DNA of 39,032 bases from a virus. Taxonomy: Duplodnaviria; Heunggongvirae; Uroviricota; Caudoviricetes. Positions 24,169 to 28,423 of this stretch are shown piece by piece. Below the pieces are notes generated by a model. That model had not been told where the DNA came from, searched no databases, and saw only the letters and a program-made list of their open reading frames with translations. The stretch is from positions 1 through 39,032 of IMG/VR virus record IMGVR_UViG_649989948_000008; one strand, given 5' to 3'. Both the position numbers and the translations under genes were made by a program. Within the stretch, counting starts at the first letter, position 1. The number at the start of each line of letters is the position of its first letter.

Positions 24169-24201
24169 AATGATTCCATACATAGTAGGTATGGAATCAT
24201 T
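24169..24201 (+). promoter_or_regulatory. 13-7-13 perfect inverted repeat (AATGATTCCATAC-ATAGTAG-GTATGGAATCATT), lox-like site or operator
   Basis: Hand-verified perfect 13-bp arms with a 7-bp asymmetric spacer, ~100 bp upstream of the recombinase gene. Confidence 0.5.
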
Positions 24202-24280
24202 TAGACGTTGTTTTTTGAATTTTAAGGGAAACAGGAGTGAGTTTGGTGGGAATAAAAACGGCTCTTGTGAGCCGTTTAAA

Positions 24281-24529
24281 TCAGAGGGTGCTGACGTATG
24301 CAGCCAGTTCTGTGTATCCGCCAATCGGTTGGCCATTGATCAGTACCTGGGGGATAGTCTCTACCGGTTTACCAACAATTTCACTAAGTTTTTCCTTGTC
24401 GATACCGGCAGTGGTGATGTCGATGTACTCATAATCACCGTAGCCATGTCCCTTTAGTTGCTTCGCCAGCTCGACCGCACGTTTGCAGTATGAACAGTTA
24501 TCTCGTCCGTAGATAACGACTTTCATCAC
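24281..24529 (-). CDS. glutaredoxin (phage NrdC/GrxA-like)
   Basis: CxxC active site CSYC near the N-terminus in a ~80-aa thioredoxin-fold-sized protein. Confidence 0.7.
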   Translation of the reverse strand: MMKVVIYGRDNCSYCKRAVELAKQLKGHGYGDYEYIDITTAGIDKEKLSEIVGKPVETIPQVLINGQPIGGYTELAAYVSTL

Positions 24530-24651
24530 TTCACCTCGTGCAACTGCTGTTCATTAACGATGATTGTGCCAATTTCGCAGTAGTGGATACATGGTTTTGA
24601 CTTCAGTGCCTGATGAGCTGCGCGACGCGCCTGTTTACGTTTGTTTCCCAT
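24529..24651 (-). CDS. small ORF (40 aa) with CxxC, translationally coupled to the glutaredoxin gene
   Basis: Hand-translated MGNKRKQARRAAHQALKSKPCIHYCEIG...; its stop overlaps the grx ATG (TGATG). Below the ORF-track cutoff. Confidence 0.3.
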
Positions 24652-24763
24652 ATTGAGTCCTTTTAAGTGAATAATGAAAGAACTATACCGACAAATAATA
24701 GGTAAGTCATTACCTATTATTTGTGCATTATCCCTCTACTATGTAGAGGGATATCGTCATGAC

Positions 24764-25576
24764 TCACGGCAGTTTTGCTCTAATTTCGAGTAATTTCTGT
24801 GCCGTTATGCTGATTTCATACGCCAGATCTTGTGTTTGGTTAATGATTCCGTAATAGCGCTCAACCTGATCAGGATAAAAACGTCTGATATGGGGGATAT
24901 CGATATAATCATAATACCCAAGCCCTCCAGCAGAATGTTCTCTGAACAGCGCCCAAAAGTTGTTCACTTTCCCGACCAACTCCATACGGATTGTTTCTAA
25001 AACAACATCATTGAAGCTGTAAAAGGGGTTATGGGCAATATTATCAAATGCGTAGAGAGGGTCGGTAATGTCGGTGCTAACTTTTGCCCGGAACTGTTCG
25101 CTCTTCAGCATTTGGAGGTAGTTGTAATTAAAAATATCAGTAATGGCTTTTAAAACACCGACGTCTCTTTCTGAGTAATTGTTCTGACTCACCTGGTGCG
25201 TCATCTGTAGCAGAAGAGATTGTTGAGTTTCGGCCAGCTGCTTCCAGTTTTTCAATTGCTCAACGGAATAGATAGTGTAGTCAGAGTCAATGAGTGCGCC
25301 ATGTGAACGACACATCCATATACCGTTATCAATCGAGCTTCGCTGTTCTGGGGTTAAGCTAGGATCATATCTCGGTCCACCTGGCGCTGCTGCTGTAATA
25401 TGTGCCGCAATACCATTATTAATCCTGCTGTTTGTATCACTGCTATCTGGACCTACAGTTGTCTGGTTGCAGCCAGGATAAGAGCACTTCCAGCCTACGC
25501 GTTCGGCTAGTGTTCGCTTCACCGATGGGGAAAAATCATCTCTGTTACTCACATTTAACCTCGCAGTGTTAAACAA
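24764..25576 (-). CDS. HNH (His-Me finger) nuclease-domain protein with an uncharacterised C-terminal domain
   Basis: N-terminal CSYPGC ... AAHI ... DNGIWMCRSHGALID resembles an HNH-type nuclease motif; the ~170-aa C-terminal region has no recognisable motif. Confidence 0.5.
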   Translation of the reverse strand: MFNTARLNVSNRDDFSPSVKRTLAERVGWKCSYPGCNQTTVGPDSSDTNSRINNGIAAHITAAAPGGPRYDPSLTPEQRSSIDNGIWMCRSHGALIDSDYTIYSVEQLKNWKQLAETQQSLLLQMTHQVSQNNYSERDVGVLKAITDIFNYNYLQMLKSEQFRAKVSTDITDPLYAFDNIAHNPFYSFNDVVLETIRMELVGKVNNFWALFREHSAGGLGYYDYIDIPHIRRFYPDQVERYYGIINQTQDLAYEISITAQKLLEIRAKLP

Positions 25577-25583
25577 TCTATGG

Positions 25584-26138
25584 CTATTTGCGTTTGTCTT
25601 CTTTCAAGCGTGAAACTTTAATCATCTTATCGGTGATAGAAAGCAATGTTACACCCTCTTTTTCGTTCACAAAGCCTGCACCGTTAATCACCATTACTAA
25701 ACGATCCTTCCCTCGATAGACTTCATAATACTTGCCTGCACCACAGGTCTTTGTCTCAATACAGTCCATACCTGAGATAGCTTCTTGGTCGAAAATTCTG
25801 TCTTTCGTTGCTACCGGTTTTCCGTACTCCCTTGTCATCATTTCACCGATCTGCATGAACGTATACTTACCGACATTTGTCGTTAAAGACGATTCAACCT
25901 TTCCATCAATGAGATTTCCATGCGTATGTGGTTCCTGTTCATTCGGTGCATTTTTATCTTGAAGAGCGAATACCTCAATACTGGGTGTTTGCTCTTGGAA
26001 CTGGGCTTTATAGTTCTGTGCAAGATCGCTTTTATCTCTACCTATTAAGGTAATTTTGTCGATCTCCGATTCGTTACATCCCGTCAGAGCGAGCATGATT
26101 ACCAGAGAGGCAAGAATATTGAGGTTGCGCTTATTCAT
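25584..26138 (-). CDS. lipoprotein (hypothetical), probable start at the internal Met
   Basis: MNKRNLNILASLVIMLALTGC signal peptide with lipobox; GGAG RBS 7 nt upstream of the ATG at 26138 (track ORF extends to 26165). Confidence 0.55.
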   Translation of the reverse strand: MNKRNLNILASLVIMLALTGCNESEIDKITLIGRDKSDLAQNYKAQFQEQTPSIEVFALQDKNAPNEQEPHTHGNLIDGKVESSLTTNVGKYTFMQIGEMMTREYGKPVATKDRIFDQEAISGMDCIETKTCGAGKYYEVYRGKDRLVMVINGAGFVNEKEGVTLLSITDKMIKVSRLKEDKRK

Positions 26139-26263
26139 TGGCTTATCTCCATGTTTTTCTGCCACATCCTGTCACCCACATGCAGGCAGTCTAATGCTGC
26201 CGTTGCTAAATGAAGACCCAAAAGTGGTAAAACCATACCTGGAAATATTCTGGAGTCAACCCA

Positions 26264-26290
26264 GTAAAAAAGGGGCCGAAGCCCCTTTGA
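26264..26290 (-). terminator. hairpin terminator downstream of the tRNA cluster
   Basis: Stem AAAGGGGC/GCCCCTTT with loop CGAA, flanked by A- and T-runs. Confidence 0.5.
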
Positions 26291-26746: not shown

Positions 26747-26822
26747 TGGTGCCGGTTAACGGACTCGAACCGCTGACATCCTGCTTACAAGGCAGGCGCT
26801 CTACCAACTGAGCTAAACCGGC
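26747..26822 (-). tRNA. tRNA-Thr (anticodon UGU)
   Basis: 76 nt: acceptor GCCGGTT/AACCGGC, D-arm GCTCAGTTGGTAGAGC, anticodon loop CTTGTAA, T-loop TTCGAGT, 3' CCA. Confidence 0.8.
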
Positions 26823-26826
26823 AATT

Positions 26827-26913
26827 TGGTGGGGAGTGATGGAGTCGAACCACCCGAGTCGCAATGACAGTAGATTTACAGTCTACACCGCTACCTCTAC
26901 GGACTAACTCCCC
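26827..26913 (-). tRNA. tRNA-Tyr (anticodon GUA), type II
   Basis: 87 nt: acceptor GGGGAGT/ACTCCCC, anticodon stem-loop GTAGA-CTGTAAA-TCTAC, long variable arm, T-loop TTCGACT, 3' CCA. Confidence 0.75.
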
Positions 26914-26918
26914 TAAAT

Positions 26919-26993
26919 TGGCGATGGTGGGTGGATTCGAACCACCGACCAGTTGGTTAACAGCCAACTGCTCTACCGCTGAGCTACACCATC
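26919..26993 (-). tRNA. tRNA-Asn (anticodon GUU)
   Basis: 75 nt: acceptor GATGGTG/CACCATC, anticodon stem-loop GTTGG-CTGTTAA-CCAAC, T-loop TTCGAAT, 3' CCA. Confidence 0.8.
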
Positions 26994-27771
26994 AATTCAG
27001 CACTGCCAGTATTTATTACTCAACAGTGCCAATCGCGACGGTTTAGTTTCTGCCAGGAAACGCACCGCTACTTGCACTTTTCGTTAGTGCCAGACGCTTT
27101 CGACTTCGCTCAATAGTAGAAGGCAAAATCTTTAAGTAGATGATGTTTCTGAGGACAGCACCTACTTTGTAATTTATACAATGTGATGTATGGAATCATT
27201 TGTTGTGAAAACAGGCACCAATGGCAACAGTGGTTAAACCTACACAACAATCCCGTCTTCACAACGTTGAGGCCACTACTCCGATTGAATGTTTGCCCAA
27301 CATGTTACATATCAACGCTCGCCGGTATCTCTGTGAATAGAACCTTAGAATTGATAAAAATGTAATGGCCTCAACGTTGTGTGCTGGCTAACCATACCAG
27401 CCGGGCTACGTCGCCGCTTTTTAACCCAGTATAAACGACATAATTGAACAAAATGACGTAACAGGATGGGCGGTCAGTGGCTAAGAATCCGGGAGTCATA
27501 TGGAGTTGAAAATATACCAACCGCCCATTCTGTTACTTCATCGGAGGGAACATGAATGTTCCCTCCTGCGTTCTGCAATCACACTCGCTCAGTGTGTCCC
27601 ATTTCGGTAACGAGGCTGGAAACTGACCTCGCTGGTGTTTGGCTTATTAGGCTACTGCCAGATAGACTTCTTCGTTTGCACTTGTATTTAAGTTCAAACA
27701 GTCGCGTCTCAACGAAAACAAAGTCATCTTATACACAAAAGATAAGTAAGTAAATACTTATCAATATGTTT

Positions 27772-28062
27772 TTATTCGGTTGTGACTTTTTTGATCAAGG
27801 CCACTCTACGACTAGGTGTTCTTGTAATGGTGGCAGTGAATCGTTTCGCTTGGATAGTAATGGTTTCGTTCTCCTTAAGTTGCCCGTAGCGAGTTTCCAC
27901 TAGGGTGCCAAGACGCCACAGACCATCATCGATACGTTTATGACTAGCAAATTTAATCAGCAACAGTTTTACGACTAACTGACCTACGTAAAAGGCGAAT
28001 GCGACTCCGGCCGCTAAGAAATAGGTGGCCAACCACCATTCCCAAGAAGTTAAATTGCTCAT
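27772..28062 (-). CDS. hypothetical membrane protein (96 aa, N-terminal transmembrane helix)
   Basis: WWLATYFLAAGVAFAFYVGQLVV hydrophobic segment; start overlaps the stop of the upstream small ORF. Confidence 0.45.
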   Translation of the reverse strand: MSNLTSWEWWLATYFLAAGVAFAFYVGQLVVKLLLIKFASHKRIDDGLWRLGTLVETRYGQLKENETITIQAKRFTATITRTPSRRVALIKKVTTE

Positions 28063-28211
28063 TTTTTCACCTTTATTTCATGAACTACCCGATACACACG
28101 CTTTCCGATGCACAGTGTTTTGGTTTTAAGTTCCTGCTTAATTAAATCACGACAGATGCCGAAGCCGATAAGGAAGCCACCCATAAAAGCTAATGAGATG
28201 TATGGAATCAT
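28059..28211 (-). CDS. small membrane protein (50 aa, below track cutoff)
   Basis: Hand-translated MIPYISLAFMGGFLIGFGICRDL...; ATGA overlaps at both ends; the start codon lies inside the repeated TGTATGGAATCAT motif. Confidence 0.35.
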   Translation of the reverse strand: MIPYISLAFMGGFLIGFGICRDLIKQELKTKTLCIGKRVYRVVHEIKVKK

Positions 28212-28423
28212 TTTAACACTCCTGATTCTACTAATTGCTGTAGCAATACTTTCCCTTTATCAGTTAACTGGTAGTTGGCCGAACACCACGTTTCAGAAAC
28301 GTTTGCAACCAACCCTAAACGCTCTAACTTAGCTCGCGTTTTAGGCTTCCAGTACTCAGGGAACTCCGGCCACTTACTGATTTCATGAAGCGTTTCCTTC
28401 TCCCGTTTACTTAATACGATCAT
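28208..28423 (-). CDS. hypothetical small protein (71 aa)
   Basis: Charged helical ORF with ATG start, translationally coupled to the downstream ORF. Confidence 0.4.
   Translation of the reverse strand: MIVLSKREKETLHEISKWPEFPEYWKPKTRAKLERLGLVANVSETWCSANYQLTDKGKVLLQQLVESGVLK

Follow-up and report, generated by a model that had tools for sequence, protein, structure and literature searches.

Conserved single copies of a putative recombinase arm sequence around the candidate crossover palindrome of SSU5-like phage-plasmids

The window, that is, the whole stretch of 39,032 nucleotides analysed here, is from an SSU5-like phage-plasmid. Such phage-plasmids were found in 248 of 5,426 complete E. 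coli genomes, and also in Klebsiella, Salmonella, Enterobacter and relatives of Yersinia pestis pMT1. Around the tyrosine recombinase gene int, a word of 13 bp occurs both as the two arms of a palindrome and as single copies (sites 1 to 3). The features are as follows.

16041-18404, minus strand: ORF of DNA polymerase III alpha.
18139-18158, plus strand: site 3, AATGATTCCATACATCTCAT, candidate orphan half-site, antisense in the polymerase ORF (codons C-M-E-S-L).
22541-22554: palindrome of the HTH gene, GGTAAGCACTTACC (GGTAAG-NN-CTTACC), conserved, 32 bp upstream of the HTH start.
22586-22972, plus strand: 128-aa HTH protein, putative repressor, convergent with int (weak Pfam HTH_19 hit; PHROG transcriptional regulator).
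22967-24070, minus strand: int, 367-aa tyrosine recombinase (Pfam PF00589 and PF22022).
23452-23464, plus strand: degenerate copy of the word inside int, CTTGATTCCAAAC.
24097-24144, minus strand: putative int promoter, TTGATC-17 nt-TAATAT, read from the sequence and below the threshold of the promoter scan.
24099-24114: LexA-box-like CTGT-N8-ACAG, read from the sequence, overlapping the putative int promoter.
24169-24201, no strand assigned: perfect palindrome AATGATTCCATAC-ATAGTAG-GTATGGAATCATT (13+7+13), proposed lox/dif-like crossover site of Int.
24701-24714: second copy of GGTAAG-NN-CTTACC.
27181-27200, minus strand: site 2, AATGATTCCATACATCACAT, candidate orphan half-site, non-coding, in the leader of the tRNA cluster, ~190 nt upstream of tRNA-Asn.
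28059-28211, minus strand: 50-aa membrane ORF (orf50).
28193-28212, minus strand: site 1, AATGATTCCATACATCTCAT, candidate orphan half-site, holding the ATG of the 50-aa ORF and the stop of a 71-aa ORF.
18139-18151 (minus), 24169-24181 (minus), 24189-24201 (plus), 27188-27200 (plus) and 28200-28212 (plus): mismatch-free copies of the 13-mer GTATGGAATCATT (reverse complement AATGATTCCATAC).

The catalytic residues R185, K211, R285, H307 and Y316/Y321 of Int are conserved; position 282, that of the first His in the pentad, is R/H. Distant homologues have an extra N-terminal domain of ~90 aa (PF13356), which this Int lacks; it has no arm-binding domain. The LexA-box-like sequence is also kept in Klebsiella pJN2-26 and L193, and int appears to be SOS-inducible.

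The first-pass annotation had reported one 15-mer at three loci. The coordinates were right, but the 15-mer TGTATGGAATCATTT has just two exact copies, at 27187-27201 and 28199-28213; at 24188-24202 its first base is replaced by G, and it is the 14-mer GTATGGAATCATTT that is exact at all three loci. The true repeat unit is a 12-13-mer, (A)ATGATTCCATAC, which the 39-kb window has in exact form five times; two of these copies (18139-18151 and 24169-24181) had been overlooked. Exact and fuzzy word counting over the window, which the annotation had proposed, left a clean gap below these five, since the next-best match to the 13-mer has two mismatches. About 0.001 exact copies of a 13-mer are expected by chance on both strands of 39 kb (arithmetic estimate). 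With up to two mismatches, the 15-mer was observed five times (shuffle mean 0.17), and this count was reached in 0 of 100 shuffles. The 98%-identical phage Cyrano has the same five copies and no sixth in its whole 108-kb genome, every one of them within 6.05 kb of the palindrome.

All copies include ATG ATT CCA TAC. The three isolated copies have in common the 15-mer ATGATTCCATACATC, which is the arm plus ATC; this ATC extension is invariant in the isolated copies and absent from the palindrome arms. No longer duplicated segment was found, and the flanks of the copies are unrelated except for a 20-mer common to two of them. The degenerate copy inside int is TTGATTCCATACATC in most other lineages (14/15 match) and has decayed in the E. 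coli lineage.

The palindrome is located 98 bp upstream of int in the window and 19-135 bp upstream of it in every context examined. It accompanies int in 54 of the 55 loci that span the region and is present in 10 of 10 distant Int contexts, of which three are non-phage megaplasmids without an HTH neighbour. The same perfect inverted arms of 13 bp were found in more than 100 relatives, and they are invariant, with no covariation. The spacer between them is always 7 bp long, and at least 14 spacer sequences were seen with identical arms; it is asymmetric, and its orientation flips between lineages. Class I arms (ATGATTCCATAC) give way to class II arms (TGACTCCAGAC, in full [AG]TGACTCCAGAC) where Int is 44-50% identical. 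The arms of L201 are a class I/class II hybrid, and L193 has an identical A-to-G change in both palindrome arms and in site 2. Because the palindrome travels with int alone and its arms switch as Int diverges, we propose that it is the cognate, lox/dif-like crossover site that Int would bind. Inverted 13-bp arms, a variable and asymmetric 7-bp spacer, a nearby recombinase and co-inheritance are all as in core sites of the loxP, FRT or dif type. The distal arm forms a sharp mosaic boundary, with at least seven unrelated sequences abutting it and a constant int side. In E. coli, all 250 occurrences are on plasmids and none is on a chromosome. On a plasmid-prophage, such a site would most likely serve to resolve multimers and to recombine related plasmids with one another.

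The single copies lie within 6.1 kb of the palindrome, and each points towards it, with no sign of recombination. At site 1, the ORF at 28059-28211 starts with MIPYI inside the motif, as had been annotated; AGGAG stands 8 nt upstream, and the ATG overlaps the TGA of the preceding 71-aa ORF. Site 2 is in an unpaired linker; the two hairpins on either side of it are conserved, with compensatory changes. In the window, sites 1 and 3 have the arm and the next 7 bp in common and are inverted. No partner arm and no spacer matching that of the palindrome was found at any single copy, and the promoter scan gave no sigma-70-like promoter over them.

More than 150 related loci hold the sites at the same places, with wobble and non-coding positions invariant while the flanks diverge, so that the relatives do conserve the copies, a point on which the annotation had wished for a check. 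At site 1, wobble columns vary at 2/5 positions in the motif versus 21/22 in the remaining ORF; at site 3, the figures are 1/5 in the motif and 42/45 in the flanks. At site 2 (49 distinct sequences), no variation occurs in 13 of 15 motif columns, versus 3 of 137 in the flanks. The p-values for the frozen wobble or non-coding columns at the sites were 7 × 10−4, 0.013 and 3 × 10−14. The residues CMESL of the polymerase are confined to lineages having site 3, and the L193 and L194 polymerases have unrelated residues in this loop; the loop was recoded to carry the motif. Judged from these alignment columns, the orphan sites are under selection at the nucleotide level. The scenario that had been named as refuting a function, a longer duplicated segment of simple origin, is contradicted both by the unrelated flanks and by this freezing.

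The single copies are restricted to phage-plasmids whose Int uses the class I arm. They are absent from the class II phage-plasmids, and are thus dispensable for Int function in general. SSU5 and L146 have no int and retain the orphan sites. These two cases are only weak evidence against reading by Int: int was lost recently, by a 2.2-kb deletion whose flanks are 99% identical; neither junction without int occurs in 72,556 plasmids; and site 2 of SSU5 is already mutated.

The first-pass annotation had offered three explanations, namely extra recombinase half-sites, a regulator binding site and a duplicated gene start. A duplicated gene start (MIPYI), or plain chance, with no function in either case, would explain why ATG ATT CCA TAC is in all copies, one of which is a genuine gene start. 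However, a ribosome-binding site and a real ORF exist at site 1 only, and the others lie in a leader that codes for no protein or on the antisense strand of the polymerase gene, which rules the duplicated gene start out. Taken together with the chance expectation given above, the unrelated flanks and the conservation of wobble and non-coding positions over more than 150 loci, this leaves such an explanation hardly credible. As for a regulator, the word might be the operator of the 128-aa HTH protein, bivalent in the palindrome and monovalent in the single copies. The P1 C1 operators are similar in being asymmetric single sites among phage-plasmid replication genes together with a paired palindromic version, and the sites here also fall in a replication-gene region. 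HTH homologues adjoin int in all phage-plasmid lineages, where the HTH gene and the single copies always co-occur, and the module is missing from SSU5, which was isolated as a free phage. The HTH gene is expressed in lysogens and has been called a putative master repressor (PMC9928086). Several facts make this unlikely: three megaplasmids carry int and the palindrome without any HTH homologue; class I and class II arms differ while the recognition helix is nearly the same (NANNLSLIKSGK versus AHNNISMLKSGK); and the HTH gene has its own conserved palindrome just upstream, with the second copy at 24701-24714. Arms of 12-13 bp around a variable 7-bp spacer are also atypical for a small HTH dimer. 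Moreover, C1 operators belong to a repressor and overlap promoters, whereas the word here goes with the recombinase site and the single copies have no promoter over them.

Two further explanations concern how the single copies would act. The first is at the RNA level: a leader RNA may regulate mRNAs by pairing with them, or an antisense RNA may block translation of orf50. Rightward transcripts would have AUGAUUCCAUACAUC both where orf50 begins and in the leader of the tRNAs, with a 15-nt complement in the pol mRNA and, in most other lineages, a 14-nt complement in the int mRNA; sites 1 and 3 in the window are perfect RNA complements over 20 nt. Site 1 covers a start codon, the unpaired position of site 2 within a structured leader also fits an RNA-level role, and a pairing network would likewise freeze all its partners. 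However, such pairing would explain neither the identity of the word with the arms of Int's DNA site nor the restriction of the orphans to users of this arm. The palindrome arms do not covary, the copy inside int has not survived intact in the E. coli lineage, and neither a match to an Rfam family nor an sRNA promoter or terminator was found, so that we regard this explanation as improbable. The second is that Int recombines the single copies as secondary sites, as in a shufflon or an integron, and so inverts the 10 kb that separate sites 1 and 3, or excises and exchanges the tRNAs and cargo between site 2 and the palindrome; we consider this very improbable. In the Rci-sfx sites of the R64 shufflon, which are the closest formal match to the single copies, a 7-bp core separates a conserved 12-bp arm from a second arm that is not conserved. 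The shared, inverted 7 bp of sites 1 and 3, the hypervariable cargo between the tRNAs and the palindrome, and the fact that the E. coli and Salmonella lineages cease to be homologous at the 3′ end of site 2 could be read in the same way. However, sfx sites share their 7-bp core and recombine to give inversions. Here, the 7 bp after the arm are unlike every palindrome spacer, and those of sites 1 and 3 differ from each other in other lineages. No inversion or deletion variant was seen in 55 loci, and gene order and orientation are the same in 55/55. The variable cargo begins after the tRNAs and not at site 2, and the ends of the int-less indel are unrelated to the motif.

Some comparisons with known systems bear on Int and its palindrome. 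Cre-loxP of P1 is similar in having a recombinase with no arm-binding domain beside perfect inverted arms of 13 bp with an asymmetric spacer, in a plasmid prophage, and in its expected roles in multimer resolution and recombination between copies. It differs in its 8-bp spacer (7 bp here), in that loxP is not known to have selected orphan arms kilobases away, and in the LexA-box-like sequence that precedes int here. No sequence similarity to Cre-loxP was detected for the site or the protein, and Int had no sequence hit in the PDB. The XerCD sites dif and cer resolve chromosome and plasmid dimers; their inner arm bases CATAA|TTATG resemble CATAC|GTATG here, and flanking polar sequences (KOPS) aim at the site. 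However, XerCD are two host recombinases with central regions of 6-8 bp, and KOPS are numerous, read by FtsK and not recombinase arms, whereas the polar elements here are only three or four copies of the arm. Accessory recombinase motifs include the third Flp element of FRT, DR1/DR2 of TnpI in Tn4430 and the arm sites of lambda Int. Like the candidates here, they are extra binding sites of defined orientation outside the core, but they lie within ~150 bp of it, whereas the single copies lie 3-6 kb away and inside genes. Lambda arm sites have their own sequence, read by a separate N-terminal domain; in this Int, PF13356 is absent, and the single copies are the core arm itself, 3.0-6.0 kb away.

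Extra recombinase half-sites are the best supported of the three explanations in the annotation, because the word is the palindrome arm, the palindrome is always with the recombinase, and the arm changes as the recombinase diverges. We therefore favour, with moderate confidence, the reading that the word is the DNA-binding arm of Int and that the single copies are selected orphan half-sites with an accessory or regulatory role in cis. Each single copy, as arm plus ATC, could seat one Int monomer. Having no partner arm or matching spacer, the single copies would not recombine themselves; they may be auxiliary Int-binding sites that loop to the crossover site or feed it. They could also bring Int into contact with the start of orf50, with the leader of the tRNAs and with the polymerase gene. 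The ATC extension missing from the palindrome arms could indicate a different or additional reader.

More tentatively, an SOS-induced recombinase may have a second job, in which polar single-arm sites organise ~10 kb and couple dimer resolution to the control of replication genes. The orphan arms would then have been built into the start of a gene, the leader of the tRNAs and a surface loop of the polymerase, all aimed at the crossover site, and could act by looping, by blocking transcription or replication in a polar manner, or by channelling forks or the enzyme to the resolution site. To our knowledge, the use of single arms at a distance of kilobases from the core site has not been described for any recombinase.

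Cargo genes of SSU5-like phage-plasmids sit exactly beside the palindrome, and as a candidate crossover site it would account for this sharp boundary; it may also help to engineer or track these elements. The unusual part is the orphan half-sites, for which a loop of the polymerase has been recoded and the start of a gene frozen by selection, so that a candidate recombinase arm stays in place. If Int binds them, they would be a compact case in which a site-specific recombinase also serves as a local organiser or regulator.

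The window comes from an SSU5-like phage-plasmid and is 98% identical, in alignable parts, to the Escherichia phages Cyrano and CMS-2020a, and its orientation is opposite to that of Cyrano. The first-pass annotation reported the 15-mer TGTATGGAATCATTT at three loci; it is exact at 27187 and 28199, whereas at 24188 its first base is G. The real repeat unit is the 13-mer GTATGGAATCATT (reverse complement AATGATTCCATAC), and word counting over the whole window, as the annotation had proposed, gave five exact copies:

18139, minus strand: exact copy of the 13-mer
24169, minus strand: exact copy of the 13-mer
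24189, plus strand: exact copy of the 13-mer
27188, plus strand: exact copy of the 13-mer
28200, plus strand: exact copy of the 13-mer

Elsewhere in the window the closest match differs at two positions. By our own arithmetic, about 0.001 exact 13-mers are expected in 39 kb on both strands, and none of 100 shuffles reached the observed count, which agrees with the earlier view that chance is an unlikely origin. The three isolated copies have the longer word ATGATTCCATACATC in common, and those at 18139 and 28200 share 20 nt. Beyond 20 nt the flanks of all five copies are unrelated; thus, the repeat is not part of a longer duplicated segment, a possibility that the annotation had raised. A further copy that matches at 14 of 15 positions, TTGATTCCATACATC, lies antisense within int, the gene of the tyrosine recombinase Int, in most lineages; in the window it has decayed to TTGATTCCAAAC.

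The copy at 24189 had been taken as one arm of a palindrome. This is correct: paired with the copy at 24169 it gives a perfect palindrome, in which arms of 13 bp enclose the 7-bp spacer ATAGTAG. The edge nearer to int (24169) is 98 bp upstream of that gene's ATG.

22967-24070, minus strand: int, encoding a 367-aa tyrosine recombinase
24097-24144: putative int promoter, overlapped by a LexA-box-like sequence

Int homologues down to 44% identity were fetched with their surrounding DNA, and in every case a palindrome, perfect or nearly so and with a 7-bp spacer, precedes int by 19-135 bp. The arms are ATGATTCCATAC where Int identity is at least 58% (class I) and [AG]TGACTCCAGAC where it is 44-50% (class II). 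Those of locus L201 are hybrid, and locus L193 has GTG... in both arms and in its counterpart of the copy at 27188. The palindrome, int and a convergent helix-turn-helix (HTH) gene occur together in 54 of the 55 loci spanning ligase to CobT. Class II units without an HTH homologue beside int are found on non-phage plasmids of Erwinia (106-kb contig), Pantoea vagans (507 kb) and Rahnella victoriana (722 kb). Because the palindrome accompanies int without the HTH homologue on these three large plasmids, it belongs to Int. R185, K211, R285, H307 and Y316/Y321 are retained in Int, and the N-terminal arm-binding domain (PF13356) of distant relatives is absent, as expected for a recombinase using a simple site. 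The palindrome is very probably the cognate crossover site of Int.

In genomes that share the int-side flank, Cyrano included, the first base past the distal arm is the start of at least seven unrelated sequences; such a sharp boundary would be the product expected from site recombination between related plasmids. Spacers vary by lineage and flip in orientation. Their consensus, WTnnTAG, occurs in both orientations relative to int despite homologous flanks (L006 versus L009; L012-L111); that is, the spacer is flipped without a flip of the flank. Among 5,426 complete E. coli genomes, the int-palindrome unit was found 250 times, always on plasmids. Chromosomal integration was rejected, since none of the 250 places was chromosomal, and this distribution favours a role on plasmids, for example in multimer resolution.

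A near-consensus LexA box, CACTGTATAAGTAAACAGTA (24097-24116; CTGT-N8-ACAG at 24099-24114), sits between int and the palindrome and overlaps the putative int -10. Similar boxes are present in L011 (~15135-15155) and L193 (~9960-9985) and are conserved in Klebsiella lineages, which suggests that the SOS response might raise Int supply. Past the distal arm (24202-24230) come about 8-10 variable GC-rich bases, a T-run and then TTGAAAT/TTTAAAT. This element recurs in most relatives, even with unrelated cargo beyond, and may bind an accessory protein or act as the -35/UP element of a promoter that faces outward. Three Yersinia pestis pMT1-like loci (L007, L063, L091) lack the T-run element, their flank joining the arm directly (ggtaaaa followed by ATGATTCCATAC), and also lack the copy corresponding to 27188; this pattern points to a rearrangement with an end at the arm edge. 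The cargo segment that separates the tRNAs from the palindrome (24220-26265) is unlike Cyrano 39447-40941. It encodes a glutaredoxin, a 270-aa protein without a family match and a 193-aa ORF whose N terminus, inspected by eye, may be a lipoprotein signal. In its place Cyrano has CYRAN_43, expressed 723-fold over background in lysogens (PMC9928086). In the Pantoea vagans megaplasmid (L199), a Fur-box-like sequence, GATAATGATAATAGTTATCATT (7790-7815), adjoins the int-palindrome unit upstream of a divergent TonB-dependent receptor gene.

The other three copies stand alone. Site 1 (28200) supplies, as had been noted, the ATG of a 50-aa hydrophobic ORF, which has a Shine-Dalgarno sequence and whose ATG overlaps the stop of an upstream 71-aa ORF. 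Site 2 (27188), in non-coding DNA, precedes tRNA-Asn by about 190 nt, and site 3 (18139) is antisense within the DNA polymerase III alpha ORF. Mini-ORFs of the form MIPYI(x)-stop at sites 2 and 3 were discarded, having no ribosome-binding sites. Searches of PHROG, Pfam and NCBIfam gave no functional annotation for the neighbouring 71-aa, 50-aa, 96-aa and 59-aa proteins.

Site 2 falls in a non-coding leader of 780 nt that precedes the tRNA cluster (leader at 26994-27771, minus strand); this leader has several conserved hairpins with compensatory changes and may be a stable structured RNA. The leader contains the inverted-repeat pair GGCCTCAACGTTGTG (~27254-27272 and 27369-27385) and sub-threshold tmRNA-like Rfam matches (27596-27771); a related pair, CACAGCGTTGAGCGG, lies at 26360-26440. 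The polymerase gene (14092-18404, minus strand) is split into 787-aa and 389-aa HHH_6 parts by a free-standing HNH_3/NUMOD3 endonuclease ORF (15258-15992), and is one gene of ~1170 aa in Cyrano and SSU5. Elsewhere, a RecA-like gene (779 aa; 8776-11115, minus strand) contains an intein with a LAGLIDADG endonuclease domain; its SSU5 homologue has 358 aa.

Conservation in relatives, a check suggested by the annotation, was found. The whole Cyrano genome (108 kb) has exactly five copies, at orthologous places and none elsewhere, and all five are kept in Klebsiella phage pJN2-26 (~75% DNA identity); they are also kept in Kluyvera, Yersinia pestis and Buttiauxella genomes. A palindrome scan of IMG/VR yielded 100 loci, and 80 more came from anchoring on the DNA ligase gene, a choice that does not depend on the motif. 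In all these loci the single copies read ATGATTCCATAC followed by ATC almost without exception, and their flanks diverge. We compared motif columns with flank columns by Fisher's test.

Variable columns in the motif and its flanks at the single copies (site 2 flanks were stacked gap-free, which somewhat inflates their variability)
Site 3 (polymerase), wobble columns: motif 1/5, flanks 42/45, p = 7 × 10−4
Site 1 (50-aa ORF), wobble columns: motif 2/5, flanks 21/22, p = 0.013
Site 2 (non-coding), all columns: motif 2/15, flanks 134/137, p = 3 × 10−14

The polymerase peptide C-M-E-S-L over site 3 occurs only in lineages with the site, and L193 and L194 have unrelated residues in that loop between conserved flanks; therefore, the DNA word dictates the peptide, not the reverse. 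Single copies are confined to phage-plasmids with an Int that uses the ATGATTCCATAC arm, and the arm used by the class II phage-plasmids (L194, L197) does not occur in them as a single copy. In the 108-kb genome no single copy is more than 6.05 kb from the palindrome (by our arithmetic, a chance of about (12.1/108)^3 = 0.0014), and all read 5'-ATGATTCCATACATC-3' towards it, a shared polarity that represents one syntenic arrangement and not many independent observations.

Nothing suggests that the single copies recombine, because the 7 bp after the arm always differ from the palindrome spacer (and, in other lineages, from one single-copy site to another) and gene order and orientation are identical in 55 of 55 loci. 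SSU5 and L146 have no int and keep the single copies, which had favoured an int-independent backbone factor. However, a clean 2,199-bp indel with 99% identical flanks separates L146 from L145, both int-less junctions are absent from 72,556 plasmids, and SSU5 site 2 already has one substitution in otherwise identical flanks. The int loss is therefore recent, and the argument for such a factor is weak. Attachment sites bounding an inserted int module were rejected too: the motif has no relation to the ends of the indel, and no copy was found at the other end of the module (22024-22586).

The HTH gene (128 aa) is homologous across all phage-plasmid lineages, and its product has been described, for LF82 lysogens, as a putative master repressor (PMC9928086). 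This protein is a less likely reader of the 12-mer, although it may still read the single copies, since a conserved palindrome of its own, GGTAAGCACTTACC (22541-22554), lies 32 bp upstream of its start and the three megaplasmids have int and palindrome with no HTH homologue beside int. The HTH protein probably has GGTAAGCACTTACC as its actual operator. Related GTAAGT/ACTTAC half-sites are found in class II elements, and a near copy, GGTAAGTCATTACC (24701-24714), lies within a 30-bp palindrome over a promoter-like site in the cargo region. Action through RNA pairing fits the position of site 2, in an unpaired linker between two hairpins with compensatory changes, and the polymerase mRNA, which holds the complement of sites 1 and 2. 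It leaves unexplained the identity with the DNA arms of Int and the class I restriction, and Rfam, at gathering and permissive thresholds, matched only tRNAs and sub-threshold tmRNA-like noise. No sigma-70 promoters or terminators were found at the copies. Sigma-54, sigma-E and extended -10 readings failed to hold across sites, and TAnnnT 6 nt past the motif, seen by eye in some lineages, was inconsistent and was dropped. To our knowledge, none of the Fur, CRP, LexA, IHF, DnaA, Tus/Ter, Cra, ArgR, EvgA and RcsAB motifs matches the 12-mer. The literature search found it in no relevant paper, and the SSU5 and Cyrano papers do not discuss it.

We lean towards regarding the three further copies as selected orphan half-sites of Int. 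The most economical guess is that they would serve as auxiliary cis-acting binding sites, where Int might loop to the core site or locally control the 50-aa ORF, the tRNA leader and the polymerase gene. The palindrome and its recombinase are a further case of a known type of system. We know of no described system that matches selected single arms at kilobase distance, and this arrangement would be a new variant.
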